Shown here: positions 3,725-35,529 of the stretch, piece after piece
How the letters are laid out: each line of letters starts with the position of its first letter
Position numbering within the stretch: the stretch's first letter is position 1
Source: Methanobacteriota archaeon
Lineage (GTDB): Archaea > Thermoplasmatota > Thermoplasmata > SG8-5
Length of the DNA: 63,347 bases
Reading direction: 5' to 3'
Assembly (NCBI GenBank): GCA_013791785.1
Contig: VMTD01000005.1
Coordinates: 1 to 63,347, forward strand
Notes under the pieces: model-generated
Database searches by the model: none
The model's input: the letters and a program-made list of their open reading frames with translations, nothing else
What the model was told of the DNA's origin: nothing
Program-made: the position numbers and the translations under genes

Positions 3725-4870
3725 TCAGCGCAGTGCTTCCCTTGCGATGACCATACGTTGAACTTCGCTGGTTCCCTCGTAAATCTCGGTTATCTTTGCC
3801 TCGCGATAGAAACGTTCCACGGCGTAATCCTTGGTGTATCCGTAGCCGCCGTGTATCTGAACGGCGTCGTTCGTCACTTCCCTGGCAATCCTGGAAGCGT
3901 ATAATTTGGCCATGGCGCTTTCCTTGGTGAAATTCTTCCCGGAGTCCTTCAGCCAGGCTGCCCTGTGTACCAGGAACCGCGCCGCAGAGACTTTGGTGGC
4001 CATCTCGGCCAACATCCACTGTATGGCCTGGAATTTGCCGATGGGGCGGCCGAACTGTTCTCTCTCCTTGGCGTATTTCACGGCCTCGTTCAGTGCGCCC
4101 TGGGCTATGCCAACGGCCTGTGCGGCGATACCCATTCTGCTGGCATCCAGCGTCGCCATTCCTAAATTGAAACCCCTGCCTTCTTCACCCAGCAAGTTTT
4201 CCTTTGAAATTCTGCAATTCTCAAAAACCAATTCCGTGGTGGCCGAGGCCCTTACTCCCATTTTATCCTCAATGGACCCGTAAGTGAAACCGGGGGTTCC
4301 TTTTTCCACAATTAATGCACTGAGTCCCTTTGTGCCCTTGGAGAGATCGGTGGATACTATCACAACAAGGATGTCAGCCTCCGAGCCAGAGGTGATGAAA
4401 ATCTTGTTGCCATTCAGTACATATTCATCTCCATTAAGAACGGCCGATGTCCTCACAGCACCTGCATCCGAACCAGCCCCCGGTTCGGTGAGGGCAAAAC
4501 CGCCCAGCTTCTGGCCTTTGGCCAGTGGGCGTAGAAATTGCTCTTTCTGGGCATCAGTGCCAAATTTATATATTGGGTAGCAACAGACTGAATTATGAAC
4601 CGCCATGATAACGCTGGTGGAACCGCAAACTTTGGCAATCTCCTCGATGGCCATCATGTAGGAGATGTCATCTATACCCGCGCCGCTCCATTCCTGCGGG
4701 ACGGTCATGCCCATGAGGTTGAGCGAGCCCATCTTGCGAATTATCTCCCAGGGGAACTCACCGCTGGCATCCAGTTCCTGGGCTACGGGTTTAATTTCCT
4801 TCTCGGCAAAGGCCCTGACCATGTTGCGGACCATGAGCTGTTCCTTGGTGTGGTCGAAGTTCATCGACAT
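3725..4870 (-). CDS. Acyl-CoA dehydrogenase (short/medium-chain type)
   Basis: GGFALTEPGAGSD and C-terminal YEGTSEVQRMVIAR motifs, about 380 aa. The first ATG is at 4870 (the ORF-track start at 4879 is TTG); the ATG at 4864 is also possible. Confidence 0.9.
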   Translation of the reverse strand: MSMNFDHTKEQLMVRNMVRAFAEKEIKPVAQELDASGEFPWEIIRKMGSLNLMGMTVPQEWSGAGIDDISYMMAIEEIAKVCGSTSVIMAVHNSVCCYPIYKFGTDAQKEQFLRPLAKGQKLGGFALTEPGAGSDAGAVRTSAVLNGDEYVLNGNKIFITSGSEADILVVIVSTDLSKGTKGLSALIVEKGTPGFTYGSIEDKMGVRASATTELVFENCRISKENLLGEEGRGFNLGMATLDASRMGIAAQAVGIAQGALNEAVKYAKEREQFGRPIGKFQAIQWMLAEMATKVSAARFLVHRAAWLKDSGKNFTKESAMAKLYASRIAREVTNDAVQIHGGYGYTKDYAVERFYREAKITEIYEGTSEVQRMVIAREALR

Positions 4871-4887
4871 CCGAAACAACTCATGTG

Positions 4888-4899
4888 TTAAATATATTA
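4888..4899 (-). promoter_or_regulatory. TATA-like box about 24 nt upstream of the acyl-CoA dehydrogenase ATG; implies a leaderless or near-leaderless mRNA
   Basis: The minus strand reads TAATATATTTAA. The spacing matches other genes in this window. Confidence 0.35.
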
Positions 4900-4908
4900 C
4901 ATCGAAAG

Positions 4909-5085
4909 GTAAGAGTTCAGTCTTCTGAAATTTTAGATTTTAGATTTTAGATATTTGCAGGAATACGCCCATCCGTATTTTAGATTTTAGATTTTAGATA
5001 TTTGCAGGAATATGCAACGCCGTCAATCCGTCGTAAATCTACAATCGTCAATCTACAATCTACAATCGTTTCGCTGAATGCTCAC
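4909..5085 (+). mobile_element. MITE-A copy 2, with a perfect 8-bp target-site duplication ATCGAAAG (4901-4908 and 5086-5093)
   Basis: Left end GTAAGAGTTCAGTC, right end CGCTGAATGCTCAC (imperfect TIR). The interior holds two (TTTTAGA)3 blocks, a duplicated core, and ATCTACA heptads. Confidence 0.85.
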
Positions 5086-5093
5086 ATCGAAAG

Positions 5094-8000
5094 TTAAGGT
5101 TCGCGCCACCTGGCCTTCCACACCACCAGCGCGGAGAATGCGACCACCGTGACAATCAGCACGAGCCAGTGCAGCATGAAGGCCGTGGGGTTCATGACAG
5201 TTTCACCCGCATCGGTCGCATGGCGGATTATGGCCGCGGCATCGGACGTCGGCAGAATATGGTCTATTGCATATTCGGTTCCACGGGTTTCGGATTGGGG
5301 TTCGGCATCCTCGCTCATCAAATCATTGGGTGGCTGCACAGAATTTGACATTGTCCATGTGCAATCCGATGTCACATGCACCCAGTAAGCATTGCCCGGA
5401 GACATGGTCACTGAGGAGAGATCGCTGAAGTCCTGTATCCACGGGGATGTTGATTGATACACTGACACCATATCCGCACTTGTGCCTTGAAGAGCATCCA
5501 AGGCCAGCTCCGGCAATATGGACGGATACCCCACCATATTCCATCCTGTGTATAGTTGAATCTGCACTTCCTCAGTTGGGTAGTAGCCCATGATGCCGGT
5601 GGTCAACATCTTGTCCCCGCCATTGGCAGTGAGCTTAATCCAAACGCCCATCTGGTTGTCGATGGTAAAGAGGGTGTTGGTTGTGCTGCCATGCCTGTAG
5701 GTCTTCCAGGTCTTGGTTACGCCATCATACCACTTGGCAACGCTCCATGTTGTGTTTCCATCGCCGTAAACCGTGTCGTTCAGTATGTCCTGAATATTGC
5801 CACTGATGGCTATGGGAAAAGATATGAATGCCCAACTGTCACCTGCGTAACTAGACAGATCGATGAGATAGGGTGCTTCGACAGTCTCTTTTGTGACGGT
5901 TACGGTATCCATTGCAGTGTTGTTGTAAATATCTGAGGCCTCTGCCTCTATGATTACCTCACCGTCCGGTACGGTTGTGCTGTCCCATTGATATACCCAT
6001 TTTCTGAGGAAATGGTCATAAGTTGCCTCTACCGGATCGCCCTTGTTAATGTAAATCCTGACGCCCGTTATGCCACTGGAGTCTCCTGCCTCCACTGTTA
6101 TATTGACCGTTCCACTTACCGTGGAGGAATTTGCTGGATAAGTTATAGAGATAAATGGAGGTAATTGATCAGTGGGTATGGCTATAGCAGTCTTTTCGAT
6201 TGTGTTGTTCTCGTTGCCGCTTTTATCGATGGCAGTGACGGCAAAGTGGTACAGGATATAATTCTCCAGACCGTATATTTCCCAATATGTTGCTCCAGCA
6301 TCGTCCTCGGGAGAGAGGGGATAGTATGTGGCCTCTGCCGTATCGGTGAAATTCCCAGTACTGTAATAAAGTTTGTACCCTGCCAGGTCATTTTCGCTAT
6401 TGGGTAGCCAGGAGACATTCACGATTCCTCCCTGTTGGAGATCGGTCGCCTCGACGTCCTGAACCGGGGCCGGGGGCATTGTATCAACAGTGGTACACCA
6501 CGCTTCTATGGAACTTGGACCCTCGTTGCCTGCAAAATCCATGGCCGTAACAATATAGTAATATGTGGTATCCCTGGTAAGTCCTTGATCCAGGTAGGAG
6601 TTTGTGGTGGCGTTGGCCACGTGCTCATAAGGGCCTCCGGGAACCAGGGCACGATAGACAAGGTACTGGCAAAGGTCAATTTCGATGTTCGCATCCCATA
6701 CGAGGGCAAGGCTCTCTCCCTCAACTCCAGATACCACTTGAAGGCCTGCAACTTGGCCAGGGGATGTTCTGTCTCTGGTGCCGTATATTGTGACATCGTC
6801 AATCCAGAATCCCGTGGAATTTTGTGTCTTGTTTGTGTAAAGGTTGAAAGCCACAATAGCTTCCTTGTGCAGATAGGGAGTGAGATCAATTTCGAATTGC
6901 CACCACCCAGAATAGCTGCCTGTAAGTCCGCCATAATAGTCCCAATTTTCCCCTTCGTCCATGGTTATGCCTATGAATAGGTAGTCACTGGCATATGCGT
7001 GCCCGGTGAGCAGGAACCGGAGCCTGGCTGCCTCCGCGGTCCTTAGGTCGAACGAATGCATGAGATATTCGTCCATGGAGCCGCCGTATTGGCCCGAGAC
7101 GTCGGAGCCGCACCACCAACTGGTGTCGTATGAGTAGTAATCATTGTTCACCTGGTGCCAGTTGGGCTGCACCGGGCTTGTTGTCGTCCAACCGTTCAGG
7201 CCGGATTCCATGTCGTCGAAGAAGAAGATGGAGGCTACCTCTACCTCGTCTATGTACATGCCCTCCCGGGTCATGCTGTAATCGCTATTGAACCAGAAGC
7301 GGATTGTCACAGAGGAGGCACCGCAGAACCCGTCCAGCGAGAGATGGCCGGTGTACCACCATGTTCGCGCCATGATGTCCGGGTCCTCACCGTCATACTG
7401 CCACTCATCATCGCCGTCATTGAGTATCAGAATCGGTGTCCATGCTGTGTCCGTGGAGCGCTTGACTGATACATTGAAAACATCGTAATAATCCTCTGCA
7501 TCCATCCAGTAGATGAAACTGAGGTATGCGTTCGTGTAGCCTGTCAGGTCGACGGTTGTGTCGGCGTAGGTATCCATGTAGTTGTCATAGGACTTTCCGT
7601 AGCCTGTGACCTTTATCTCGTCGATGTACCAGCCCTCCCTGGCGACGCTACCGTCGCTCTCCATGAGGAACATGAGGTATATCTCTGAACCATCGTAGGC
7701 GGAGAGGGATAATGTTTTCGCCTCCCACTTGCAGGCATTCGCATCGTAATCGTTCGGGTCGTAGCCGTTGTCCCTGATTCCCGCATCGGCAGTGTTCCCA
7801 TATGTTGCCAGGGTCGTCCATTCCGGCCCGTCAACCGTGGTTGGAGGAGTTGTGGATACTTTCACATAGGCAAGGTCATAGAAATCCTCCAATGCAAGCC
7901 ATTGCTGGAATGTCAACTCACAGCCAGTGTTGGCTGTGAGATCAAGCGTTGTTATCATGTAGGAACTCATGCTGCTACGATACTGCGGGCCTGTTCCTGT

Positions 8001-9218
8001 CGCCCTCACATCGTCAATGTACCAACCGGGGGCGCCCCCCGAATCGTCAGTCCCGAGGCCGAACCTTATCCCGACATTATTCTTTCCCGCGCATGGGTTC
8101 AGGTTGGCAATTATATTCCTCCACGCAAGATTGTCGTAGCAGTATGCTGCGTAACCGCCCAGAGGATTCCCGTAGCTGGTGCTCAGTGCCGCGTCGTAAT
8201 ACGGTGAAGGGTTGGTCGACGGTGTATTCACATGATACCAGTTCCCGCCGGTCCTGTTCTCGATTATGCCGCCGTCCCAATTGCTCGCCGTTCCCTCGAA
8301 ATCGGTATATTGATAATAATTGAGGGAGAGGGTAGAGTATCCCCGAGCATCTAAAACCGGTAATTTTAGGAATGAATCCTCGCTGTCAGCATAGTTGCCA
8401 GCCAGGTTCGTGCCCCAGCAGTTCGTACCGGAGCGGGGTGCAGGTCCCACTGTAGGGTTGCCGAGGGCCCAGCTGTCAGCGGTCCCGGTGTATATGCCAT
8501 GTGTCCAGCCAGTAGCGCCGGATTCCAGGGCATCTGCGAAGAGCGTGTTCGTTCCGGTTCCGGGACTCGTTCCGGCGACATGGTAGCTGTAGTTGCCGGA
8601 ATATGTCTTGTTGGAGCTTCTGGCCCATGAGGCTGGCACATCGGCAGGGTCTGCGTCGCCAGTCCCCCAGAAATAGCCGATGGGGTATTCAGCGGTGTCG
8701 TAGAATATGGTATGCTGCTGGCCAGCCACCGCCCCGACGCCGGCACAGTAGAGGCTGTAATCCCCGTAACCCGGCCTGTCCGCGGTCGCAGCCCAATAAT
8801 CGTATCCGGAGGCCGAGTTCAGGTCGGCTATGGTCCATCCGTCGGTGCCGGATTCGAAATCATCGTAGAATATGTAGGAATCCTCGGGGGCGCGGGTTGA
8901 GCGTGTTCCTGACATGGATTCACGCTGGGGAATTGGATGTGGCCTGAAACTTATATCTTCCGAAGCAGGATACGCTGCCGAACGCAATCCCGGATTGGTT
9001 TCCTGCTGGACAGAAATCGATGTGGACTCACCAAGTGTTCTGGCATCAGGATTCTGGACGCTTGGAATATATGGTTCACCCGTGACCCCTGAGTCTAAAG
9101 GTGCTGTTTCCAGAGAAGATGATTTTTGCAATGCTGTTGTTGCAGGAAATGCAGCCATTGAAAGCAGGGCTATGACTACAAGTGAGGACATCACTGCAAC
9201 GATAACAGTCTTTCTCAT
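5094..9218 (-). CDS. Giant secreted surface protein (1374 aa): signal peptide, about 5 MAM/jelly-roll-like modules, 2 FN3, an Ig-like domain, a C-terminal beta-rich domain and a TM anchor
   Basis: Start at the ATG for MRKTVIVAVMSSLVVIALL, 10 nt after the upstream stop. Recurrent GWYIDDV / GWYIDEIKV / GMYIDEVEV / GFWIDDVTIYG module ends. FN3 signatures (YLVYRA...TTYYYIVTAMDFAGNEG). The last ~50 aa are almost identical to the ABC-2 permease C-terminus. Confidence 0.85.
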   Translation of the reverse strand: MRKTVIVAVMSSLVVIALLSMAAFPATTALQKSSSLETAPLDSGVTGEPYIPSVQNPDARTLGESTSISVQQETNPGLRSAAYPASEDISFRPHPIPQRESMSGTRSTRAPEDSYIFYDDFESGTDGWTIADLNSASGYDYWAATADRPGYGDYSLYCAGVGAVAGQQHTIFYDTAEYPIGYFWGTGDADPADVPASWARSSNKTYSGNYSYHVAGTSPGTGTNTLFADALESGATGWTHGIYTGTADSWALGNPTVGPAPRSGTNCWGTNLAGNYADSEDSFLKLPVLDARGYSTLSLNYYQYTDFEGTASNWDGGIIENRTGGNWYHVNTPSTNPSPYYDAALSTSYGNPLGGYAAYCYDNLAWRNIIANLNPCAGKNNVGIRFGLGTDDSGGAPGWYIDDVRATGTGPQYRSSMSSYMITTLDLTANTGCELTFQQWLALEDFYDLAYVKVSTTPPTTVDGPEWTTLATYGNTADAGIRDNGYDPNDYDANACKWEAKTLSLSAYDGSEIYLMFLMESDGSVAREGWYIDEIKVTGYGKSYDNYMDTYADTTVDLTGYTNAYLSFIYWMDAEDYYDVFNVSVKRSTDTAWTPILILNDGDDEWQYDGEDPDIMARTWWYTGHLSLDGFCGASSVTIRFWFNSDYSMTREGMYIDEVEVASIFFFDDMESGLNGWTTTSPVQPNWHQVNNDYYSYDTSWWCGSDVSGQYGGSMDEYLMHSFDLRTAEAARLRFLLTGHAYASDYLFIGITMDEGENWDYYGGLTGSYSGWWQFEIDLTPYLHKEAIVAFNLYTNKTQNSTGFWIDDVTIYGTRDRTSPGQVAGLQVVSGVEGESLALVWDANIEIDLCQYLVYRALVPGGPYEHVANATTNSYLDQGLTRDTTYYYIVTAMDFAGNEGPSSIEAWCTTVDTMPPAPVQDVEATDLQQGGIVNVSWLPNSENDLAGYKLYYSTGNFTDTAEATYYPLSPEDDAGATYWEIYGLENYILYHFAVTAIDKSGNENNTIEKTAIAIPTDQLPPFISITYPANSSTVSGTVNITVEAGDSSGITGVRIYINKGDPVEATYDHFLRKWVYQWDSTTVPDGEVIIEAEASDIYNNTAMDTVTVTKETVEAPYLIDLSSYAGDSWAFISFPIAISGNIQDILNDTVYGDGNTTWSVAKWYDGVTKTWKTYRHGSTTNTLFTIDNQMGVWIKLTANGGDKMLTTGIMGYYPTEEVQIQLYTGWNMVGYPSILPELALDALQGTSADMVSVYQSTSPWIQDFSDLSSVTMSPGNAYWVHVTSDCTWTMSNSVQPPNDLMSEDAEPQSETRGTEYAIDHILPTSDAAAIIRHATDAGETVMNPTAFMLHWLVLIVTVVAFSALVVWKARWREP
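5098..5249 (-). repeat. Direct repeat copy 1 of the permease 3' end; partner at 15637-15788
   Basis: Hand alignment gives 141/152 identical, with only 3 mismatches in the first 100 nt. Same orientation, and in frame in both genes. Confidence 0.9.
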
Positions 9219-9228
9219 CCTACCACCA

Positions 9229-12228
9229 TCACAGTGTGTAAGATCCCGGGTAATTGTCAACTTGTTCCGGGTGGGAATCACTGTACTCGCTTGTGTATTT
9301 TGGTGCTGCGATGGAGAATGCCGATTCCATGGTGGTGGAACCCTGGCTCTCTATGGCCCACTTGAGGTACCAGTATGTCCAGGCACCCAGGCCGTACTGG
9401 CTGGCATCATACGTATATTCGTTCCAGCCACAGCCCTGTGCAACGTACCGGCCGCAGTTTGCATCATATCCGCTGCCAGTGTAGCGGTATGCTACCTCGT
9501 CCATGCCTCCGCTCCTGCACTCATCCATGAATACGAAAACCTCCACGCTGGCCAGATTTCTCAGGCGATATGAGAATACATTATCTAGGATGCAACCCGC
9601 ACCGTATCCGCTAGCGTCCCAAGCAAACCATTGGGCCGGGTGGCCGTCTTTCTGACCGTCATATGAAGTGCCGGCACTGGCACTGTATCCGGCCTCGGAT
9701 TGATGGCCTCCGTGCCCGCTGAAAGTGATTACAACCTTTGTGCCAGCCACGGCATTGGCTACGATGTTGTCCACTGCACTGTAAATGGCGGCCTCGCTTG
9801 CCTGGCTGTTAAGAAGACTGGTCACTGCGTACCCCTTGCCCTGGAGATATGTGCCCCATTCCTGGGCGTCTTTGTGAGCATAGGAGAGGTCGTTTATGGT
9901 CTTGTAGTCGGATATGCCAATCACAAGGGCGAGTTTATCGCCTGTAACAACACCGCCATCAGTGCTTGATGCCTTTACCGAAAATGCACCACTACCGCTG
10001 TATGATAGTACCATTATGTGGTAAGTTCCAGCGGAGGGATTGGTGATGGTGACAACCTCGTTGGAGGAGGATGTATAGCCCCTGCCGTCGTAAGTGCTGG
10101 TGGTCGGCTGTGAGCCAAATTTAACGTACAAATCAATGTCGTACCCGCTGCCGGTGTTGTATGTCTCCACCTTGAGGGTGGCCTTGCCTGCGGGTACTGC
10201 CACGGTGAAGTATTTTTTGTCGGCAGTTGCGCTCACGCTGCTGGCAATACCAGAGCCGTCAAGCGTCAGAGTTGAGGAAGAGGATGAGCCGGTGGTTGTG
10301 AAGCTATTGCCCGTGCCAGTTGCCATATTGCCGGCAGCATCGGCCGACTTGACCCTGTAATAATACTTAGTGTTGGCTGCAAGTCCGGTAAGCGGTCGAT
10401 TGTGGCTCGTTACATATGTTGAACCGCTCGCAGTCAAACCGTAACTCGTGGTGGTGCCGTACTCCACAACACTCGTCGCAGCTTCGTTGGTGGTCCACGT
10501 AACCGTGGCACCGGTGTCGGTTATGGATGAAACGGCCATGCTGGAAATGGTCGGAGGTGTTATGTCAGTCGGAGTGCTGGATGTGCTCGTTGCCTTGACG
10601 GAGAACGTACCGCCGCCGCTGTAGGAATAAGCCATGATATAATAGGTGCCGGCAGATGGATTGTTAATGGTTATGACTTCACTGGAGGAAGATGTGTAAC
10701 CCCTGCCGTCATAACTGCTCGAGGTGGGCAACGCACCGAGTTTCACATACAGGTCAAGGTCATATCCGCCGCTGGGGTTGTACGTTTCCACCTTTAGAGT
10801 GGCCTTGCCGGTGGGCACAGCAACACTGAAGTATTTCTTGTCCCCGGTGGCACTGACGCTGCTGGCCGCCCCAGAACCATCAAGTGTAATGGCGATAGGT
10901 CCAGAGGCATCCGCGAGGGTTGTGAAACTGCTGCCCGCGCTGGTTGCCGTGTTACCTGCCGCATCGGTTGATTTCACCCTGTAATAATACTTGGTATTGG
11001 CAGTCAGGCTGGAAAGGGCAACGCTGTGGCTCGTAACACCATTGGTTCCGGTTGCAGTGGAACCATATGAAGTGGTGGTACCATACTCAACGACGGAACT
11101 GCTGGCCTCATTGGTGGTCCATGTTACCATGGCACCGTTGATGGTAATTGAAGAAATTGCAACGCTGGATATGGTCGGAGGAGTGGTGTCTGCCGCGCTC
11201 AGGGTGGTAAAGCTGTTGCCAGTGCTCGTGGCAACATTGTTTGCCAGATCTGCTGATTTGACCCTGTAATAATACTTCGTGTTGGCAGCCAAGCTAGTTA
11301 AGGCAATGCTGTGGCTGGTCTTGAGCGTCGTACTACTGGCAGTTGTCCCGTAACTCGTGGTGGTGCCATATTCTACGATGCTGGTCGCAGGTTCATTGGT
11401 TGTCCATGTTATAGTAGCGCCGCTTGATGTTATTGAAGTGACCGCCAGACCCGATATGGTGGGAGGCGTGGCGTCAACACCGGCGAGAGTGGCCTTGACC
11501 CTGGCATTTCCGCTGCCGCTATATGAATTTACCATTATGTAATATGTACCAGAGGCAGGGCTGCTGAGCACAACCTTTTCATTTGAAGAGGATGTATAGC
11601 CTCTGCCGTCATAGGTGCTGGTGGTCGGAAGCGCGCCAAGCTTGACATAGAGGTCAAAGTCACCCGGGCTTGCAGGTCCCTCGGAGTCTATGGTGAGAGA
11701 CAAGCCACCAGATGGTATGGCTATCGAGAAATATTTCTTGTCGCCAGTGGCACTTAGTGACTGGTAAGAGGACCAGGTGCCGGAGTAATTCGGAACCGTC
11801 ACTACAGAGGTTCCACCCGCCGCGGTGGCCTTGAATGTGTAAGATCCGCTGCCGCTGTAAGAGTTCGCCATAACATAGTACGTTCCGGATACTGGATTGG
11901 TGAGGGTTATGGTTTCGGAAGCAGAGTTGGTATAACCGCGCGCATCGTAACTGCTGGTCGTCGGATAGGCCCCTCTTTTTATGTAGAGGTCGAAATCATA
12001 TCCGGTTCCCGTATTGTATGTTTGAGTGGTAAGCGAGGTATAGCCCGTTCCCAGGGTGAAGTAGAAGTAATCTTTCTGTCCAGACGCGCTGAGGCTGCTG
12101 TTCACCGGTACATCCAGGCTCACCTGCTGATTTACTCCATCAGCCAGTGATAAACCTGCTGTCGCCAGAATGCTGACGCCAAATACTACACACACTAACA
12201 AAATCCATACATTGCTTTTCCACATCAT
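9229..12228 (-). CDS. Secreted clan-CD (caspase/legumain-like) cysteine peptidase with an N-terminal array of PPC (pre-peptidase C-terminal-like) and FN3 domains
   Basis: Signal peptide MMWKSNVWILLVCVVFGVSILA with GGAGG upstream. Four PPC-like units (DxDLYVK...GTYYIMV.SYSGSG). Three FN3 units (PPTIS...YGTTTSYG...NTKYYYRVKS.D.AGN). C-terminal LALVIGISDY...ITFSGHGG...FMDECRSGG supplies the His/Cys dyad motifs. Confidence 0.85.
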   Translation of the reverse strand: MMWKSNVWILLVCVVFGVSILATAGLSLADGVNQQVSLDVPVNSSLSASGQKDYFYFTLGTGYTSLTTQTYNTGTGYDFDLYIKRGAYPTTSSYDARGYTNSASETITLTNPVSGTYYVMANSYSGSGSYTFKATAAGGTSVVTVPNYSGTWSSYQSLSATGDKKYFSIAIPSGGLSLTIDSEGPASPGDFDLYVKLGALPTTSTYDGRGYTSSSNEKVVLSSPASGTYYIMVNSYSGSGNARVKATLAGVDATPPTISGLAVTSITSSGATITWTTNEPATSIVEYGTTTSYGTTASSTTLKTSHSIALTSLAANTKYYYRVKSADLANNVATSTGNSFTTLSAADTTPPTISSVAISSITINGAMVTWTTNEASSSVVEYGTTTSYGSTATGTNGVTSHSVALSSLTANTKYYYRVKSTDAAGNTATSAGSSFTTLADASGPIAITLDGSGAASSVSATGDKKYFSVAVPTGKATLKVETYNPSGGYDLDLYVKLGALPTSSSYDGRGYTSSSSEVITINNPSAGTYYIMAYSYSGGGTFSVKATSTSSTPTDITPPTISSMAVSSITDTGATVTWTTNEAATSVVEYGTTTSYGLTASGSTYVTSHNRPLTGLAANTKYYYRVKSADAAGNMATGTGNSFTTTGSSSSSTLTLDGSGIASSVSATADKKYFTVAVPAGKATLKVETYNTGSGYDIDLYVKFGSQPTTSTYDGRGYTSSSNEVVTITNPSAGTYHIMVLSYSGSGAFSVKASSTDGGVVTGDKLALVIGISDYKTINDLSYAHKDAQEWGTYLQGKGYAVTSLLNSQASEAAIYSAVDNIVANAVAGTKVVITFSGHGGHQSEAGYSASAGTSYDGQKDGHPAQWFAWDASGYGAGCILDNVFSYRLRNLASVEVFVFMDECRSGGMDEVAYRYTGSGYDANCGRYVAQGCGWNEYTYDASQYGLGAWTYWYLKWAIESQGSTTMESAFSIAAPKYTSEYSDSHPEQVDNYPGSYTL

Positions 12229-12396
12229 CTCACAACCTCCTTGACCGCGCGGATATGCGAACGAATTCGGGTAATTATATTTATTACTCCCGAAGTCAAT
12301 TCTAATAACCCATAACGTTGAAGATTGTATATATAGGTTACTTCACCCCATTATCAAAATGTTAAAAAAAAGGGCATAAAACACCCAATAAAGGAA

Positions 12397-13809
12397 TCAG
12401 TTGCGAGAGTGTTTCTTTCGTTTTGGTTTTTCCTCGTCGTCCTTTCTCTTCCAGAATCTTGATTTTTTCAAGAACCAGAAAACAACACACCCGCCCAGAA
12501 AACCAACAATCACGAAAATCGGTATGATGCCATTATCGATCCTGTCATCATCTTCAATCTTCTCCTGACCTGGCTGAGATAGACTCGTCATCACAATGTC
12601 CCTGTCCGTTCCGTCAGTGAGCAGGGCGCTGGTGGTCTCCCATACTACTATAATTTCTTCATCGACTTGTATCGCGTCGTGTCCGGGCACGACCGTTCCA
12701 CCCGAATCCGCAGAATCCTTCCCCTCGGACACCACCAGAACGCTCCCGAGGGTTGTCCCGTTAATCTCGGCCACAGCTATGTCCCAACCATCTCCGCCTG
12801 TAATGGAGGGATCAGAACTTTGCCATGACAACCAGACACTGCTTTTGAACGGAAAAAGTAACGGATATACGTCATCGCCGGTGTCATGGGAAGATGACAG
12901 CGCATGAGTGCTCCAGGTACCGTTGTACATTGCCAATCCTATGTCCATGTCATCCCCCGGACCGACTGACTTGTCCTTTGACTGCCAGGCTATGTACAAA
13001 CAATTGTTCAGAGTGAGCATGCTCGGGTACATGTCGTCCTCGGTGTCTGCCGTGTCCGAAAGCTGCACTATCTCATCTAGAGAATGGTTCTGGAGGTGGA
13101 AGGACGCTGCCACGATGTCCATATCCATGCTGTTCGTGTATGCATTGTCGCCGCTGCTCCACGCAATCCAAAGTTTATCATCCAGGAAAACGGCAGAGGG
13201 GTTCAGGTTCATGCCCTTCCAGTCCTTGGTGACCACAAGGGCCTCTGAAGGAACAGAATTGTAAGTGGCCAGCAGGATGTGTCCCTCTACCCCCTCGATT
13301 GAATGCCAGAGGACAATGACGCCATTCTGGTACGGCACCAGACATGGCGCATAATCGTTTGCAGTGTCATTGGATACCGTGAGCTCTATAGGGGTGTTCC
13401 ACCCTGTTTCAGGATAATAAATTGATAGAGCAATGTCCCAATCTAATCCTGATGTGTACTGTGAATTATCCGTTGCCCATGCAGCATAAATCAGACCACC
13501 CGAAGCGCAGAGTGCCAAGTCTCTCTCGTTGCCAGTGCCCTCCACCAACTTTTCCACTCCAGACCACGTGCCCTGGTAGCGCACATTGTACCTTATGTTG
13601 ACATTGGAACCTTCGGATGCAAGCCAGGCTACCACAAGGGCGCCGCCGGTTTCGGCAATACTGGGCGATCTGTCGATTCGGGAATCTCCAGCCTCGGTAA
13701 TCTCTGTGGTGTAGAACGCATTCACACCGGATAACAGGTTGATGGAGATTAAAAAGAGTACAAGAAACAGTGTGATGATGGTGACTTTCCCTGTCCTGCA
13801 TGCCGTCAT
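12397..13809 (-). CDS. Membrane-anchored beta-propeller-like repeat protein (about 7 repeats of W-x-S/T...D-x-D-I)
   Basis: The start ATG overlaps the upstream stop (ATGA) and gives signal/TM MTACRTGKVTIITLFLVLFLISI. Repeats include IAWSSGDNAYTNSMDMDIV, IAWQSKDKSVGPGDDMDIG and LSWQSSDPSITGGDGWDIA. C-terminal TM plus a K/R-rich tail. Confidence 0.75.
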   Translation of the reverse strand: MTACRTGKVTIITLFLVLFLISINLLSGVNAFYTTEITEAGDSRIDRSPSIAETGGALVVAWLASEGSNVNIRYNVRYQGTWSGVEKLVEGTGNERDLALCASGGLIYAAWATDNSQYTSGLDWDIALSIYYPETGWNTPIELTVSNDTANDYAPCLVPYQNGVIVLWHSIEGVEGHILLATYNSVPSEALVVTKDWKGMNLNPSAVFLDDKLWIAWSSGDNAYTNSMDMDIVAASFHLQNHSLDEIVQLSDTADTEDDMYPSMLTLNNCLYIAWQSKDKSVGPGDDMDIGLAMYNGTWSTHALSSSHDTGDDVYPLLFPFKSSVWLSWQSSDPSITGGDGWDIAVAEINGTTLGSVLVVSEGKDSADSGGTVVPGHDAIQVDEEIIVVWETTSALLTDGTDRDIVMTSLSQPGQEKIEDDDRIDNGIIPIFVIVGFLGGCVVFWFLKKSRFWKRKDDEEKPKRKKHSRN

Positions 13810-15590
13810 TCGCTCTTCCTCCGGGCGATGAATTTGGTGATGAACATCATTACCAGAACGGAGAGCAGAATTCCAAGCCCCAGGGACAACAGCATTTGAC
13901 CCATGGTCCAATTGGAACCGGCTTCTTCCTCGTTCAGCGAAGAATCATCGCCAGTGGTGTTATCATCAGCAATAACATTGTTTTCTTGAATGGGGATGGT
14001 GACCTCGGCAGTGGCTATGTTGTTCCATGGTTCCAAGTCCTCCGAACAGTTGGCCACGACAACCAAAGTGTGGTGACCTGATTGGGGATACCAAAAGAAG
14101 GAATGGAAATAGAACTGGTCAGTGTTGATGGTAAAATTAGTGGAGTTCAAGAGCACACCGTTGGAAGGGAGGCCCTGGAATACTTCCAAATGGACATCGC
14201 CCGAAGCCTCTCCTCTATTGTACAGGACAATGGTGACCTCCACCTTGGAAACATTCACCCAGCTGAACGCTATCCCATTCTGAATTATCAAGACATCAGG
14301 ATATACGGGGAGAATCGTAAGAATGGCCGATGAATTGGCAGCGAGTCGTTTCTCATTAATGAAAACCGTGAAATCATATTCTCCCGGTTCGGTTGGAGTC
14401 GTGATGTTAAAGTGAGCTTCGCCCATGTCATTTGTGGTGGACAGATATTCTACTCCTTCAAGAACAAGAACAGCCTCCTGACCGAATACATTGGACCCGT
14501 CCTCGTACACGGCACTACATTTTATGGATAGTTCCCTTCCGGGTTTGCTGGTCACATTTTCAACCGTCACTTTGATGCTCGAGTAGTAAATGTCGCGTCT
14601 GTACCACTCGGTTTCAGCCATGTTGCCTGATAAATCCAGCGCACGCACCTTCAAAAGTACGAACGTGCCACCCGGAAACGGCCCCACGTCCCCAAGAAAG
14701 CCGTCCTTCGTTTCATTCATTGACAGTTCCTCTTCGTCCGCATCACCTACTGAAAAAATCAGCGTGACTGGTTTGTCCTTAGCTAGTCCCAGGTCATCCT
14801 CTACTAATGCCAATACACTCACAATATCCTCGCTTGTTGGCTCCTTCAGGGATATCTGAGGTTCGGAAATCACCGGGGGGAATGTGTCTTGTATCTCGAT
14901 AGTGTTGTTAGCCTGATTGTTTGTAATGTTCCTGTCAGAAGGTTCCACCTGGTCTGCCACCACGGTAAACAGATGAATTCCGCTCTCCGCAACCCACAAC
15001 ACCCCAACAATATTGGAACCGTTCGCAGGAACGACGATGCGCTCCGAGAACAACAATTCGCCCTGGAATGGCGTGCCCAAAAATAGTTTCACTGTCGTGT
15101 TGGCATCCAGTTCACCAATGTTTCGAACCGTGGTGTTCACCAAGACCTTGCTACCTGTCTCGAAAGCATCGGACCAGAAGGATATGTCCTCCTCTTGGAC
15201 GCAGATGTCCGGCGCAGGAGGCGGTGGAGCCATCACCGTCAGAAAAAGAATGGAATTGCCTGAATAAATACTCCAAAATGCAGAAACATTAATAGAATAT
15301 TCCCCCAAGGCCAATGGAGCGTTGAAAGACGCGACGAACATCCCCTTGTCATCCGTGGTGGTGTTGACCGTTATATTCGTTTTCTCAACAATAATCTCTA
15401 CTGTCGCGTCGGCAACCAACATATTCTTTGAGTCCTTCACGGTGCCGGTAACCACCGCCTCATCACCAGGGTAGACTGTTTCATCATTCAGTGCGGTTTC
15501 GACCGTCAAGGACGTGGCTAGGACCGGGACGGCACAGATGGAAGATAGCAACAGGATAACTAGTATACCTCTCCACAACGCATGCGCCAT
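13806..15590 (-). CDS. Secreted CARDB / carboxypeptidase-regulatory-like multi-domain protein with a C-terminal TM anchor
   Basis: The first ATG gives signal MAHALWRGILVILLLSSICAVPVLA. Two CARDB-like units (VRNIGELDANTTVKLF..., LYNRGEASGDVHLEVF...). C-terminal TM LLSLGLGILLSVLVMMFI. Confidence 0.8.
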   Translation of the reverse strand: MAHALWRGILVILLLSSICAVPVLATSLTVETALNDETVYPGDEAVVTGTVKDSKNMLVADATVEIIVEKTNITVNTTTDDKGMFVASFNAPLALGEYSINVSAFWSIYSGNSILFLTVMAPPPPAPDICVQEEDISFWSDAFETGSKVLVNTTVRNIGELDANTTVKLFLGTPFQGELLFSERIVVPANGSNIVGVLWVAESGIHLFTVVADQVEPSDRNITNNQANNTIEIQDTFPPVISEPQISLKEPTSEDIVSVLALVEDDLGLAKDKPVTLIFSVGDADEEELSMNETKDGFLGDVGPFPGGTFVLLKVRALDLSGNMAETEWYRRDIYYSSIKVTVENVTSKPGRELSIKCSAVYEDGSNVFGQEAVLVLEGVEYLSTTNDMGEAHFNITTPTEPGEYDFTVFINEKRLAANSSAILTILPVYPDVLIIQNGIAFSWVNVSKVEVTIVLYNRGEASGDVHLEVFQGLPSNGVLLNSTNFTINTDQFYFHSFFWYPQSGHHTLVVVANCSEDLEPWNNIATAEVTIPIQENNVIADDNTTGDDSSLNEEEAGSNWTMGQMLLSLGLGILLSVLVMMFITKFIARRKSE

Positions 15591-15632
15591 GTAACAACAA
15601 AACACCAAGCTTCTATTTAAATTTGCGCCTGC

Positions 15633-16403
15633 TCACGGTTCGCGCCACCTGGCCTTCCACATCACCAGCGCGGAGAATACGACCACCGTGACAATCAGCA
15701 CGAGCCAGTGCAGCATGAAGGCCGTGGGGTCCATGACGGTTTCGCCAGCACCGGTCGCATAGCGGATTATGGCCGCTGCGTTGGACGTGGGAAAGATGTA
15801 GACTATCCATGACAGATTCATTCCGCTCATGTTGGTCAGCATTGCCTCCGAGTAATAGACCGGCGGCAGGAAAACGAATCCGAAGCTGAGTATGTTGGCG
15901 ATGATTCCCAGGGTGTTGGGGCTGGTCTTGTGTTGGTATGTGGCTATGGTGAATCCCATTGCGGCAAGTGCGAGCCAGCAGAGTATCATGGCCCCCAACG
16001 TCACCAGGATTGAAAATGGGTCGAACAGACCCCGGTAAACCCCGTAACACAAGAACGCGATGAATCCCGGGAAGGAAAATATCAGAAATCCGAGAGTGAG
16101 GCCCATGGCATAGGACAGCGGATGAACGGGCATGGCCACCACCATCTCCCTGAGCTTGACATATCTGTCCCAGGTGATGTCCTGTATCGACGCGGTAATG
16201 GCTATGAATCCGATGCTGGATACTATAACACCCACAAGGCCCACGTCCATCATTTCCGCCCCGCCGAAGAGTGTGATGAAGAACAGCGGTATCGCAGCCA
16301 GTCCCACAAGGATCAGGAGCATGAGTGGCTGCCTTTTGATGTCGGGAATGGATTTCATGTAGGCGATTATCCATGTATCTTTGATTATCTTCCTGATGCT
16401 CAT
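15633..16403 (-). CDS. ABC-2 type transporter permease
   Basis: 256 aa with about 6 predicted TM helices. Translationally coupled (ATGA) to the ATPase gene. Confidence 0.85.
   Translation of the reverse strand: MSIRKIIKDTWIIAYMKSIPDIKRQPLMLLILVGLAAIPLFFITLFGGAEMMDVGLVGVIVSSIGFIAITASIQDITWDRYVKLREMVVAMPVHPLSYAMGLTLGFLIFSFPGFIAFLCYGVYRGLFDPFSILVTLGAMILCWLALAAMGFTIATYQHKTSPNTLGIIANILSFGFVFLPPVYYSEAMLTNMSGMNLSWIVYIFPTSNAAAIIRYATGAGETVMDPTAFMLHWLVLIVTVVVFSALVMWKARWREP
15637..15788 (-). repeat. Direct repeat copy 2 (the native permease 3' end); partner at 5098-5249
   Basis: See 5098-5249. Confidence 0.9.
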
Positions 16404-17311
16404 TCCAGCTCACCTCCGGCAAGTCTGACGAACGCATCCTCCAGCGTTACGGGCGCTGCCTCGGCTTGAACGCCCCTCTTCAGCATGTCACGGACTAGTT
16501 CTATTGCATCATCGTCGCTCTTCAGATAGACCACCAGGCGGTCGCCTATCTTTGTGACCTCAGGATACTTGGATTGGTCTATTTCCCCTTCCGGGGCGAT
16601 TACCCTGTACCTGTAAGGGACCTGTTTCTTTATCTCGGCGGTGGTGCCGACTATCACAAGTTCGCCCTTGTTGATTATGGCCAAACGGTCGGAAACCATT
16701 TCAGCCTCGTCCATCATGTGCGTCGTCAAAATGATTGTATTGCCCTTGGCTGCCCTGTCCCGGAGGGTGGACCATACGTTCCTTCGGCCGATGGCATCCA
16801 GGCCGCTTGTCGGTTCGTCCAGCATCATTATGGGTGCGTCGCTGGCCAGTGTCGCCGCGATTAGCGCTCGGCGCTTCTCGCCGCCGGACATGGATTGGCA
16901 TGGCTTTAAACGCATATCCCACATGAGCATGGCTCTCAGCGCCTCCTCGGCGTTCTTCTTGGCCTTGGCCTTGTCCATTCCCCTGAGCAGACAGAAATTG
17001 TAGGCATAGTCCCACGGGGTGAAATTCGCATAGGCCATCGCGTCCTGCGGGACCATGGCAATCTTTTCCCGTATCGCATTCGGTTCATTCACCACGCTGT
17101 ATCCCAGGATGTGCGCGTCCCCGGAAGTGGGCATGAGTTGGGTGCACAGTATCCTGAGAAAGGTGGTCTTACCGGCGCCGTTCGGTCCGAGTATGGTGAA
17201 CACCTCGCCCTTGTTGACTGTGAGGTTCATATCCTTGAGTGCCTGGGTCTTCTTCTCATATGTCTTCGAGATTCCTTTCGCAACTATTGCGGGTTCGTGA
17301 ATTTGATTCAT
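16400..17311 (-). CDS. ABC transporter ATP-binding protein (ABC-2/DrrA-like)
   Basis: Walker A GPNGAGKTT, signature MSGGEKRR, Walker B IMMLDEPTSGLD. Confidence 0.93.
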   Translation of the reverse strand: MNQIHEPAIVAKGISKTYEKKTQALKDMNLTVNKGEVFTILGPNGAGKTTFLRILCTQLMPTSGDAHILGYSVVNEPNAIREKIAMVPQDAMAYANFTPWDYAYNFCLLRGMDKAKAKKNAEEALRAMLMWDMRLKPCQSMSGGEKRRALIAATLASDAPIMMLDEPTSGLDAIGRRNVWSTLRDRAAKGNTIILTTHMMDEAEMVSDRLAIINKGELVIVGTTAEIKKQVPYRYRVIAPEGEIDQSKYPEVTKIGDRLVVYLKSDDDAIELVRDMLKRGVQAEAAPVTLEDAFVRLAGGELE

Positions 17312-17331
17312 GTTCGCACCTTTTCTGTACC

Positions 17332-17339
17332 CTTATAAA
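17332..17339 (-). promoter_or_regulatory. TATA-like box (TTTTATAA on the minus strand) centred about 24-25 nt upstream of the ABC ATPase ATG
   Basis: The position and sequence resemble the pyrF and DGGGPS upstream boxes. Confidence 0.4.
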
Positions 17340-17448
17340 ATGTACAGTATATTTAAAGAACGTGGAAACGGATGACCACTTTGTTTCATAATTCAAATGA
17401 TTTTTCAATGACAAACTTATTATCCCATACGCGGAATATGGTTGGTTG

Positions 17449-18150
17449 ATGGCAAAGAAAAAAGGCTCAGGGAAGGGCAAGAAGAAGCCCGTGTCCAAAC
17501 CAGCCAAGAGCGGCAAGACGCCACCGGACAGAGAGCCAACGCTGAAAGAACTCAAGAGGACGCTGGATAACCTGAAGAAGCAGAACGAGAAGCTTCAGAA
17601 GGAACTGGCAAAGGTATCGGCCCAGTCCAGGGACCAGCAAAAACAGTTGATTAGCCTCCAGGGGAAGATGGACACCCGGGTGAAGCGCGAGGATATTCTA
17701 ATGGCCGCTCTCGGGATAAATACCAGGACCAAGAAAGGCGATTCAGGAGCAGTCGGCAAAATAAGCCAGTCCCTGATCAAAACAGATGAGCATCTGGTGA
17801 AGATGGGAAAGAGAATCGAAAACATGCTCTCCGCCCTGAAGAATCACAGGGAATATCTTATCCGTCTGAACAAGAAGGTTTACAAAGTTGAGCCAATGAA
17901 GAAAATAGAGATGGAACTGGGCATAATGAACAACACCCTCTCCATAATGGCGCTCAGCGGTTTCAATATTGACAAGGCACTCTTCGGTGACATGAAGAAT
18001 ATCAGAAAGATGATGCTGAAGGAGGATGCCGAAATAGCCAAGGTACAGAAGCGCATGGTCGGTTTCAAGAGAAAGTTCGAGGAAGAGATGCAGAGATTCG
18101 ACCTGGACAGTATTTTCAACAAAGGTGCCCACATTCCGGGTTACCGTTGA
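17449..18150 (+). CDS. Hypothetical coiled-coil protein with a lysine-rich N-terminus
   Basis: The ATG at 17449 (preceded by a TTG) gives MAKKKGSGKGKKKPVSKPAK followed by heptad-rich helical sequence. No recognisable catalytic motif. Confidence 0.6.
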   Translation: MAKKKGSGKGKKKPVSKPAKSGKTPPDREPTLKELKRTLDNLKKQNEKLQKELAKVSAQSRDQQKQLISLQGKMDTRVKREDILMAALGINTRTKKGDSGAVGKISQSLIKTDEHLVKMGKRIENMLSALKNHREYLIRLNKKVYKVEPMKKIEMELGIMNNTLSIMALSGFNIDKALFGDMKNIRKMMLKEDAEIAKVQKRMVGFKRKFEEEMQRFDLDSIFNKGAHIPGYR

Positions 18151-18983
18151 ACGGCCATTTCCCGCGCTCCGATGAAATCCTTGATTAATCTGGCAGCCAG
18201 TACCGAAGTATTACCGTTGTCCGCGGGGGGGCAGACTTCCACCATGTCGAATCCCACAGTTCGGTGGGCCAAGTGCCGAATGATATCTCTGACCATGGCC
18301 GATTCAAGGCCGAACGGTTCAGGGGTGCCGACGCCTGGCGCGTATGCCGGGTCTATGCCGTCCATGTCCACAGAAACATATAGATTGCCAGGCAATGTGC
18401 TGTCTATGAACTCTATCAATTTTTTCGTGCCCAGTTCCCTTGCCCGGTCCGCGGTTACATAATCCAGGCCGAGCCGCTCAGCGTCCTCGAATTCTGATTT
18501 GCAGATTGAACGAATACCCACCGGAAGCACCTTTTCCGGAGAAATAATCTCATCAATGCGCCTGGTGGCGCAGGCATGATTGTTCTTGTCGCCTTTCAAC
18601 TCGTTCCTGTAATCCAGATGCGCATCGAAAACCAGGACCGCCACATCGTGAAAAGCTTCAATGGCATAGGGGGTAACAGAATGTTCCCCGCCCAACATTA
18701 TCGGAACCTTGCCGTCCTTCAATATTCCTTTCACGGCTTCGAGAATCTCTTCCCTGGGCTTTTCCATGGGCAAATCACCCATGTCGTGCGTCGGAATCAT
18801 GGAGAGGTCCATTTTCATATCCGGTATGAAGGATTCGAAGGTGTAGGATTCCCTGCGAATGGCCTGCGGGGCCTCGGCGCTTCCCTTGCGGTGGGTCCCG
18901 GTGATGTCCAACGGTGCACCGAATATAACATATTTACTGTGGCTGTAAGTTGAACCCGCGTCGGAGAAAAGCGTACCGCCCAT
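18141..18983 (-). CDS. speB: Agmatinase (arginase/ureohydrolase family)
   Basis: Mn-binding motifs GGEHSVT, VFDAHLD and SVDMDGIDP. Lies 6 nt downstream of the aIF5A gene. Confidence 0.88.
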   Translation of the reverse strand: MGGTLFSDAGSTYSHSKYVIFGAPLDITGTHRKGSAEAPQAIRRESYTFESFIPDMKMDLSMIPTHDMGDLPMEKPREEILEAVKGILKDGKVPIMLGGEHSVTPYAIEAFHDVAVLVFDAHLDYRNELKGDKNNHACATRRIDEIISPEKVLPVGIRSICKSEFEDAERLGLDYVTADRARELGTKKLIEFIDSTLPGNLYVSVDMDGIDPAYAPGVGTPEPFGLESAMVRDIIRHLAHRTVGFDMVEVCPPADNGNTSVLAARLIKDFIGAREMAVQR

Positions 18984-20240: not shown

Positions 20241-20377
20241 GTAAACATTCAGCGAAACAATAACGATTGTAGATTTAGGGATTGTAGATTGTAGATTTAC
20301 GACGAACGGGCATCCTGCCAGCAAAAATCTAAAATCTAAGTTCTAAAATCTAAAATCTCAGAAGACCTACCTCTTAC
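20241..20377 (-). mobile_element. MITE-A copy 3 (reverse orientation)
   Basis: GTAAACATTCAGCG...GATTGTAGATT heptads...core...AATCTAAAATCT heptads...CAGAAGACCTACCTCTTAC. No clear target-site duplication. Confidence 0.75.
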
Positions 20378-20391
20378 GATTACGCAAAAGG

Positions 20392-23077: not shown

Positions 23078-23218
23078 GTAAGAGTTCAGTCTTCTGAAAT
23101 TTTAGATTTTAGATTTTAGATATTTGCAGGAATATGCAACGCCGTCAATCCGTCGTAAATCTACAATCGTCAATCTACAATCTACAATCGTTATTGCTCC
23201 ATTTCACTGAATACTTAC
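23078..23218 (+). mobile_element. MITE-A copy 4 (canonical, 141 bp), with a 7/8 target-site duplication CCTTGCCT / CCTTGTCT
   Basis: TIRs GTAAGAGTTCAGT / ACTGAATACTTAC. Interior (TTTTAGA)3, core, ATCTACA heptads. The right TIR holds the nitroreductase TAA stop. Confidence 0.85.
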
Positions 23219-23739: not shown

Positions 23740-23995
23740 GGGGGTGGATTGGCGTCGAAAGAATAAATGTTTGCCCTGAACGGTAAACCTGAGATTATGG
23801 TGGTATCGACTTGAAATGCTCATCACTCCCCACCCTTTCTCCATCTCCTTCACATCCCCCGGCAACCCAACCAACGGAATCATGATTACCTCCACTCCAA
23901 CCCGTGAATAATCCTCTTCGTATAAATTGAGTTCACGGAGGAACCAAAAGCATGAAATACAACGAACCCATTCATTAACAATAGGGGGAACTCCC

Positions 23996-31998: not shown

Positions 31999-32049
31999 GC
32001 AATCACCCTGGCAGTATTTTGCCATGGATATTTAACGTTGCGGTGAGAA

Positions 32050-32163
32050 GTAAGTATTCAGTGAAACGATTGTAGATTGTAGATTTACGATTGTAGATTT
32101 ACGACGAACGGACATTCTGCCAGCAAATATCTAAAATCTAAAATCTAAAATCTAAAATTTCAG
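32050..32163 (-). mobile_element. MITE-A copy 5 (reverse orientation). One terminus is missing and the interior is fused to the mnmA 3' end.
   Basis: GTAAGTATTCAGTGAAACGATTGTAGATT...(ATCTAAA)4...TTTCAG. The mnmA TGA stop lies in the subterminal CTGAAA. Confidence 0.75.
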
Positions 32164-35325: not shown

Positions 35326-35506
35326 GATTGTAGATTTATTAATTGCTGCTGGCAGAATGCCCACCCGTATTTTAGATTTTAGATTTTAGATTTTAGATTT
35401 TAGATTTATGCTGAGAATATGCCACGCCGTCAATCCGTCGTAAATCTACAATCTACAATCCCTAAATCTACAATCTACAATCCCTAAATCTACAATAGTC
35501 AATCCC
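35326..35506 (+). repeat. MITE-A-related copy 7 without recognisable TIRs; (TTTTAGA)5 and extended ATCTACA/CCCTAAATCTACA arrays
   Basis: It shares both core segments with copy 2 (4909-5085). No flanking duplication. Confidence 0.65.
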
Positions 35507-35529
35507 TGTCCGAACCCCGCAGTTACCTT

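Follow-up and report, generated by a model that had tools for sequence, protein, structure and literature searches.

A four-gene cell-surface block probably joined to an ABC-2 exporter pair by lineage-specific insertion in an uncultured Thermoplasmata archaeon

Six co-directional genes in a Thermoplasmata metagenome-assembled genome (MAG) encode an ATP-binding cassette (ABC) ATPase, an ABC-2 type permease, an immunoglobulin-like (Ig-like) protein, a beta-propeller, a secreted Peptidase_C14 protease, and a giant MAM-like protein. We conclude that this interval very probably consists of two independent units, an exporter pair and a four-gene surface block, that were joined by a duplicative insertion specific to one lineage. 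The genes lie on the minus strand at positions 5094-17311 of contig VMTD01000005.1 (GenBank assembly GCA_013791785.1; Methanobacteriota archaeon, GTDB lineage Thermoplasmata, SG8-5), of which the stretch analyzed, positions 1 to 63,347, is referred to throughout as the window (Table 1). A sequence-only reading of this DNA had proposed all six genes as one functional unit on the strength of their tight linkage and of a permease-derived tail shared by the giant protein. The part of this proposal that stands is the linkage of the four surface genes, which are conserved together in other lineages, but the ABC-2 pair is not part of the unit.

Separate distributions of the exporter pair and the surface block

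Contigs compared with the window are numbered L001 to L027. The exporter half of the interval is made up of an ABC ATPase gene (Pfam ABC_tran, 6e-30) and an adjoining gene for a permease with six hydrophobic segments in a hydrophobicity scan, the composition by which an ABC-2 type transporter is recognized. The best NCBIfam match of the ATPase is the drrA subfamily (2e-69, below the cut-off of that model). The permease itself scores below threshold against ABC2_membrane_3 (21.7 bits; cut-off 31.6); its close homologues carry PF01061/PF12698 and are annotated as ABC-2 permeases, and the 330 homologues found come from Thermoplasmata and Bathyarchaeia. The pair resembles DrrAB-like ABC-2 exporters in having one ATPase gene and one gene for a permease with six transmembrane (TM) segments, and differs from them in being a conserved chromosomal pair of Thermoplasmata and Bathyarchaeia that sits beside housekeeping genes. 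To judge from homology and gene context, it is an ordinary DrrAB-like exporter, widely conserved in housekeeping surroundings.

Relatives retain this pair without the surface genes. Permeases similar to that of the window occur in six of them (L024, 84% identical; L022, 82%; L011, 80%; L005, 78%; L007, 76%; L009, 72%), with ATPases that are 85%-86% identical in relatives lacking the surface genes, and none of the four surface genes was found near any of these six ABC pairs. The upstream order SNO-PcrB-UbiA-aIF5A-arginase-hypothetical-ABC-permease is retained in L011, L005, L007, and L009, where the permease is followed by carbonic anhydrase (ProCA)/MFS/HDAC/RDD or similar genes; genes found downstream in the relatives (ProCA, MFS, HDAC, RDD, L1/L10) had no counterpart in the window by tblastn. 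In L022 and L024, the two closest of the six, a gap of 42-95 nt separates the permease from a gene for acyl-CoA dehydrogenase (ACAD; 80% identical), followed by MetRS, and this is the order that comes after the giant gene in the window. Gene order thereby identifies the L022/L024 arrangement as the empty site.

The block has a distribution of its own. The order Ig-like, propeller, C14 protease, and MAM-like giant, including the ATGA overlap and the long spacer before the protease gene, is conserved in at least six other lineages, with examples in UBA280, UBA147, CWP4-2.bin.83, GCA_964601625.1, and three metagenome contigs, with propeller identities from 62% down to ~30%, and every contig with a propeller homologue that could be inspected carries the same block. 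In UBA280 (L013/L014) and UBA147 (L015/L016), both labeled Methanomassiliicoccales archaeon at NCBI, the flanks are a divergent MobB gene and a small open reading frame (ORF) upstream and MCM-DUF424-NMD3 downstream, and the four products have 583-584 (Ig-like), 452-466 (propeller), 999-1013 (PPC/fn3/C14), and 1353-1358 (giant) amino acids (aa). The CWP4-2.bin.83 contig (L017) has the same MobB gene upstream and is cut within the protease gene. All four genes are also present in L021/L027 (GCA_964601625.1 and a JGI contig), at identities of 34% (Ig-like), 32% (propeller), ~60% (protease), and 55% (giant); L025 shows the propeller, a 791-aa C14 protein, and the giant, and L026 shows Ig-like, propeller, and protease genes, with the propeller 31% identical. 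No ABC transporter adjoins the block in the three lineages with a visible upstream flank. A scan of GTDB species representatives found the propeller in only three species, and a metagenome scan with a 10-sequence propeller alignment added only four loci. In the propeller search, the window organism accounted for only one cluster, and no match fell in the range from 62% to 100% identity; the protein database accordingly shows no further copy of the block. Tblastn searches of the window for the usual flanks of the block (MobB, MCM, FTCD) gave no match, which places the donor locus outside the window.

These two distributions bear directly on whether the six genes are one surface module, with the ABC-2 transporter exporting, for example, a glycan, lipid, or cofactor for the surface proteins. 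Co-directionality, tight spacing (42 nt between the permease and Ig-like genes) with no obvious terminator between, and the permease tail on the giant would all suit such a module. Because six relatives have the pair and lack the block, and three lineages with a visible upstream flank have the block and no pair beside it, the six-gene module nevertheless fails: the pair is linked to surface proteins only in the window lineage, as it would be after a chance insertion of a cassette, an outcome that the sequence-only reading itself had named as refuting its proposal. In addition, the block has its own predicted, conserved promoter, and the tail stands in for the native anchor of the orthologues, as described below. 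We regard a six-gene module as very improbable.

Junctions and a model for the insertion

Both edges of the block can be located. On the left, homology to the orthologous blocks starts about 7 nt past the permease stop, at a promoter-like element (GCGCAAATTTAAATAG); on the right, the sequence switches in frame from giant to permease at about 5268. The order along the minus strand is thus the permease, ~7 nt, the 10.36-kb block (predicted promoter included, giant gene truncated at its 3' end), a 170-nt duplicate of the permease end, the native spacer with a later miniature inverted-repeat transposable element (MITE), and ACAD. Without the MITE-like element and its 8-nt target-site duplication (TSD), the spacer between tail and ACAD measures 44 nt and is visibly similar to the permease-ACAD spacer of L022. 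The duplicate and the permease 3' end form a direct repeat that is 89% identical over 170 nt, far beyond chance, and whose homology stops at the stop codon; the shared tail reported earlier thus exists.

We propose that the four-gene block (~10.36 kb), whose products are predicted to be Sec-exported cell-surface proteins, would have been copied or moved, in the window lineage only, to a point just after the permease stop codon. The inserted stretch would have begun about 35 nt upstream of the ATG of the Ig-like gene, so as to include the predicted promoter, and stopped about 55 codons short of the end of the giant gene. Its insertion would have left a second copy of the final 170 nt of the permease gene. 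Because the copy on the upstream side reaches the end of the permease coding sequence, the permease would have stayed intact; the downstream copy would have been joined in frame to the shortened giant gene, where its out-to-in TM helix and basic tail would have taken over from the lost anchor. The junction anatomy suggests a one-step replicative template-switch or staggered-break insertion. Fusions created by target-duplication insertions of this kind likewise have a direct target repeat flanking the insert, with one copy in a chimeric ORF; in the window, the duplication is long (170 nt), the upstream copy stops precisely where the permease coding sequence does, and the fusion swaps a TM anchor for another of the same topology.

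An assembly chimera, in which the MAG was mis-joined at the 170-nt repeat, is scarcely credible as an alternative. One contig (L003) does break inside the giant gene near the repeat. However, at an identity of only 89%, the repeats do not collapse; the same order with a 1374-aa giant is found in three separate assemblies (L001, L002, and L004); both junctions fall within continuous contigs of up to 255 kb; and the fusion is in frame and carries a signature of selection. Overall, the same gene order is present in at least four independent assemblies, three of which have the 1374-aa giant product, and the permease is encoded identically on contigs of GCA_018899285.1, GCA_018899975.1, GCA_018900055.1, and an ENA assembly.

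Direct repeats that flank the block, as they flank integrative elements, together with a MITE at its right edge, could also indicate a cassette or genomic island capable of moving itself, with a recombinase of its own directed at the 3' ends of permease genes. There is, however, no integrase or transposase in or beside the block, a repeat search found no inverted pairs that would serve as terminal inverted repeats (TIRs) of the block, the position between MobB and MCM is stable in other lineages, and the MITE has its own TSD and represents a separate event. Autonomous mobility is accordingly highly unlikely, and we rejected an integrative mobile element on the absence of a recombinase and of TIRs and on the stable position elsewhere.

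A permease fragment in place of the native anchor

The giant protein is 72% identical to its L013/L015 orthologues up to about residue 1318. The 55 residues beyond that point are the permease C-terminus, comprising a loop, the sixth TM segment (TM6), and the motif KARWREP. The orthologues end in a linker and a TM anchor of their own (…TSGLQLVPLLIGMLYIVIRKLRQ), and this native anchor is missing from the window giant. Both tail copies share an AGETVM motif that is absent from all other permeases, a lineage-specific feature that dates the duplication to after the split from L024/L022. Between the copies, synonymous divergence (dS) is about 0.29 and nonsynonymous divergence (dN) about 0.07 (dN/dS about 0.23). 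The differences are concentrated upstream of the membrane segment, with 14 of 17 differing codons within the first 27 codons of the tail, against 3 of 31 in the TM half, where the TM helix and KARWREP are kept. The copy on the giant has lost N and Y residues that are invariant in the permeases (PTSNAAAIIRY to PTSDAAAIIRH), and five changes ahead of the TM segment go to polar or charged residues. This pattern fits a simple out-to-in membrane anchor, the predicted topology of both TM6 and the native anchor, and not a retained permease function.

The conservation of the TM half, with KARWREP kept and a low dN/dS, would also be compatible with a coupling that is new in the window lineage, in which the TM6 copy of the giant docks with the dimer of the ABC-2 permease or competes for a place in it. 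If this were true, a rearrangement would have created a physical link between a transporter and a surface proteolytic/adhesive complex, with the six genes cooperating now, though not ancestrally. Such docking is most unlikely in our view: the invariant N and Y are lost, the five polar or charged substitutions are as expected in a linker and not at a permease interface, and any hydrophobic helix followed by a basic tail suffices for anchoring, as the orthologues show. Because the duplication arose by an insertion that replaced the native TM anchor of the giant, the tail provides no evidence of coupling. On this comparison, it is a rearrangement scar co-opted as an anchor, and its use as a sign of a functional unit has to be abandoned.

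Predicted transcription units

Promoters were called from conserved TATA boxes, as appropriate for an archaeal host, and not from a sigma-70 model. The ABC pair is preceded by a TATA box (TTTAAATA, 17350-17357) and by AAGGTG at 17317-17322. Directly after the permease stop, the element at the left junction resembles a transcription factor B recognition element (BRE) with a TATA box, and it lies 23 nt before the ATG of the Ig-like gene in the window as well as in L013-L016; in L017, a more diverged AT-rich box occupies the same distance. We infer that GCGCAAATTTAAATAG is the block's own promoter. A spacing of 23 nt between TATA box and ATG suits a leaderless mRNA, given the general geometry of archaeal promoters, and the mRNA of the Ig-like gene is probably leaderless.

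The 168-nt spacer between the propeller and protease genes contains a T8 run just past the propeller stop (12364-12371), followed by a TATATATA box (12327-12336), a hairpin (CTTCGGGAG…TACCCGAA, 12266-12295), and GGAGG (12236-12240). The box, hairpin, and GGAGG recur in L013, L015, and L017. This spacer probably combines a terminator, an internal promoter, and a 5' untranslated region (UTR) for the protease and giant genes, and the hairpin region may be a regulatory 5' UTR. An Rfam scan of 4500-18000 at E ≤ 1 returned one chance-level match and no known RNA in the spacers. A conserved predicted promoter of its own immediately after the permease stop argues that the block is transcribed separately from the pair, and the TATA box before the Ig-like gene, together with the T8 run and TATATATA box before the protease gene, speaks at the level of sequence against transcription as a single unit. 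The likely arrangement is therefore three predicted transcription units, namely ATPase plus permease, Ig-like protein plus propeller, and protease plus giant.

Products of the surface block

ORF calls reproduce the six co-directional genes on one strand. The spacing described in the sequence-only reading is correct for the ATGA overlaps (ATPase/permease and Ig-like/propeller) and for the gaps of 10 nt (protease-giant) and 168 nt (propeller-protease), but not for the permease-Ig gap, which measures 42 nt, and not 24 nt, when the start codon common to all orthologues is used (ATG at 15590; MAHALW...). Hydrophobicity scans agree with the signal peptides assigned to all non-transporter products, each of the four exported proteins having a hydrophobic, signal-like N-terminus, and with C-terminal anchors on three: TM segments close the Ig-like, propeller, and giant proteins, and the protease has none. 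Among the domain labels, the beta-propeller, the PPC/FN3/caspase-like clan-CD protease, and the MAM-like/FN3 giant were all recovered by the searches described here, and the label "CARDB protein" has to be withdrawn.

That label had been given to the 594-aa product, which has no match to CARDB (PF07705) at E ≤ 1; its Pfam matches are to CarboxypepD_reg (6e-9) and, weakly, MG4, and CARDB appears only as a "faint" record on the distant L021 orthologue. The protein is rich in N-glycosylation sequons, of which it carries 18, and is 55% (L013) to 34% (L021/L027) identical to its orthologues. Its domain matches identify it as a generic Ig-like multidomain protein.

The propeller protein has no Pfam or NCBIfam family. 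Its AlphaFold2 (AF2) model (pLDDT 78, pTM 0.77) shows about seven blades, and the top Foldseek matches, which are generic only, are 6- and 7-bladed propellers. They include the PL42 lyase 7esn and sialidases, with TM-scores of 0.4-0.6 and about 10% identity. A role as a glycan lyase or sialidase was rejected, given an identity of ~10%, a TM-score no higher than 0.6, and a generic fold. Only five close homologues were found in 5.8 billion proteins, and a full HMMER search returned 370 remote relatives, which shows that the fold family extends beyond the block.

The giant matches InhA-like_MAM (1e-24), fn3 (twice), and Big_7 in Pfam, and in NCBIfam it matches the MAM-like segments of M36 peptidases and nothing more specific. 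Its architecture comprises about four MAM-like jelly-rolls, two fn3 domains, Big_7, an uncharacterized C-terminal domain, and the anchor, and the protein is rich in N-glycosylation sequons.

The protease combines four PPC domains (2e-49), three fn3/Pur_ac_phosph_N domains, and Peptidase_C14 (PF00656; 3.7e-11, 43.6 bits against a cut-off of 21.4). The His (SGHGG)/Cys (DxCxSGGMDE; DECRSGG) dyad is invariant in the orthologues and in Asgard homologues, and the C14 sequence aligns, dyad motifs included, with that of GSU0716 (PDB 3bij). In its AF2 model (pLDDT 81), the C14 domain is predicted to have the caspase-hemoglobinase fold; the best Foldseek matches are GSU0716, MALT1, and metacaspases (E ~1e-11, TM-scores 0.65-0.71). 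The sequence LSYAHKDA places an Asp where metacaspases have their S1 Asp, which suggests, on our assumption, Arg/Lys specificity. The enzyme is probably an active clan-CD peptidase of Arg/Lys type, the specificity being taken from knowledge of the family. Outside the clade, the nearest homologues of the C14 domain (9229-9990) are found in Asgard archaea (Odin-, Hod-, Heimdall-, and Thorarchaeota), where they belong to the caspase family and show 30%-35% identity; these are short proteins with N-terminal hydrophobic (signal-peptide) segments and the same C-terminal motif. A closer match, a PPC plus C14 fragment (P0127, 60% identical), comes from the block in its diverged L021 form.

In its C14 match, His-Cys dyad, and fold, the protease resembles metacaspases, orthocaspases, and paracaspases such as GSU0716, MALT1, and yeast Yca1. 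Characterized C14 members are intracellular, however, whereas the window protease is secreted and places four PPC and three fn3 domains before a C-terminal catalytic domain. The inventory of PPC, fn3, InhA-like MAM, and Big_7 domains is shared with secreted bacterial PPC proteases that carry InhA/M6- or M36-type MAM-like domains. In contrast to these, the MAM-like giant in the window has no protease domain and catalysis is assigned to a separate polypeptide, the enzyme belongs to clan CD and is not a metalloprotease, and its partners are TM-anchored, as suits a wall-less archaeon.

PADLOC returned only generic ATPase matches and a generic caspase model and no defense-system signature. An anti-phage defense system was rejected, as these matches are generic and the four surface proteins are exported.

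Locus layout and neighboring elements

Table 1. Features of the exporter pair, the surface block, and their downstream flank in the window
Feature	Position	Strand	Remarks
ABC transporter ATPase	16400-17311	-	303 aa, DrrA-like; member of the ABC-2 pair, outside the surface block
ABC-2 type permease	15633-16403	-	256 aa, six TM-like segments; intact
Repeat copy A, native permease 3' end (loop, TM6, KARWREP motif)	15637-15806	-	From repeat search and alignment
BRE/TATA element GCGCAAATTTAAATAG	15613-15628 (TATA 15614-15621)	-	Conserved in relatives
Ig-like multidomain surface protein	13806-15590	-	594 aa, signal peptide, C-terminal TM anchor
Membrane-anchored 7-bladed beta-propeller	12397-13809	-	470 aa, Lys-rich cytoplasmic tail
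Propeller-protease spacer	12229-12396	-	168 nt; T8 run, TATATATA box, hairpin, GGAGG
PPC x4/fn3 x3/Peptidase_C14 protease	9229-12228	-	999 aa, signal peptide, no anchor
MAM-like giant surface protein	5094-9218	-	1374 aa, signal peptide, permease-derived anchor
Repeat copy B, duplicated permease 3' end	5098-5267	-	In frame, last ~55 codons of the giant gene
MITE-like element	4909-5085	-	TIRs, internal heptamer arrays, 8-nt flanking duplication
ACAD	3725-4864	-	Native downstream neighbor of the permease; flank of the empty site

The neighbors of these features in the window are archaeal housekeeping genes (PcrB/GGGP synthase, UbiA, aIF5A, agmatinase, MetRS, and XPD). A second giant surface protein is encoded on the plus strand at 23927-27601 (1224 aa, Big_5/fn3, 39 N-glycosylation sequons, C-terminal TM anchor), a few kilobases upstream within the conserved neighborhood. 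L005 and L009 have a different giant there, with an LTD domain, so this slot is variable.

The element next to the block is 177 nt long, has TIRs GTGAGCATTCAG and CTGAACTCTTAC, and is bounded by an 8-nt duplication, CTTTCGAT, at 5086-5093 and 4901-4908. With its TIRs, TSD, and at least five copies in the window, it has the attributes of a MITE, and we take it to have entered the native permease-ACAD spacer later, as a separate event. Intergenic members of the same MITE-like family lie at ~20250-20385, 23078-23218, 32047-32165, 35369-35507, 26-142, and 34652-34716; the family has TIRs GTAAGnnTTCAG and CTGAAnnCTTAC and internal (GATTGTA)n and (ATCTAAA)n arrays that form an imperfect inverted repeat, and between positions 4977-5070 and 23099-23192 the identity is 100%. 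Elsewhere in the window, a 167-nt direct repeat (34507-34673 and 54971-55137; 99% identical), containing (AGTGAAA)n and (TCACTTT)n arrays, brackets 20.46 kb; the arrangement could reflect an integrated element, or else a second type of MITE present in two recent copies.

In L013 (~18660-18905) and L015 (~13630-13915), the intergenic region between giant and MCM holds dense arrays of another heptamer (GGGTCTA/CCCTAGC), analogous to those of the MITE-like family, with inverted copies. Given the adjoining MCM gene, these arrays might be related to replication or regulation.

Possible function and significance

Several observations weigh against the interpretation of the interval as two units joined by insertion, or leave parts of it incompletely explained. 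The 3' ~93 nt of the tail copies (5098-5190 and 15637-15729) differ at only three sites, a pattern that is only partly explained and that hints at gene conversion or at strong constraint on TM-coding sequence. Between the permease stop and the Ig-like gene, we see no strong terminator, and transcription may read through from the permease into that gene. The Ig-like and propeller proteins are without functional annotation, and the rearrangement mechanism is one that we infer from junction anatomy alone. Even so, the six-gene system is not real, and the anchor swap is an evolutionary footnote that brings no new mechanism.

What remains to be interpreted is the four-gene block, a candidate, on domain content, for a role in extracellular protein capture and degradation or in maintenance of the cell coat. 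The anchored Ig-like, propeller, and MAM-like proteins would bind a polymeric substrate or build a cell coat. That the four products form a membrane-tethered surface assembly, in which these three anchored proteins retain the secreted C14 protease, is in our estimate an evenly balanced proposition. We advance with slightly less confidence, and only tentatively, the suggestion that the block may encode an archaeal surface machine that has not been described before, with a secreted metacaspase-like enzyme at its core and the nearest relatives of that enzyme in Asgard archaea, a reading that is more likely than a coupling to the permease. A passage in PMC12448462 describes cultured Thermoplasmatales as being without a paracrystalline S-layer. 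Literature searches found no description of this block, nor of C14 peptidases secreted by Thermoplasmata or Asgard archaea; the block is thus undescribed in the literature found, yet built of familiar secreted-protease and adhesin domains.

For inference of function from operons in MAGs, the locus calls for caution, as one rearrangement can yield both tight co-directional spacing and a shared tail. It also offers a clean and datable natural anchor swap, in which a fragment of a polytopic transporter would have become the single-pass anchor of an unrelated surface protein, with both the empty site and a donor-type locus observable in relatives. For uncultured Thermoplasmata, the comparison reveals a narrowly distributed conserved operon that encodes a predicted secreted caspase-fold protease together with three anchored partners, and the protease of this block would extend secreted C14 peptidases beyond the Asgard examples.

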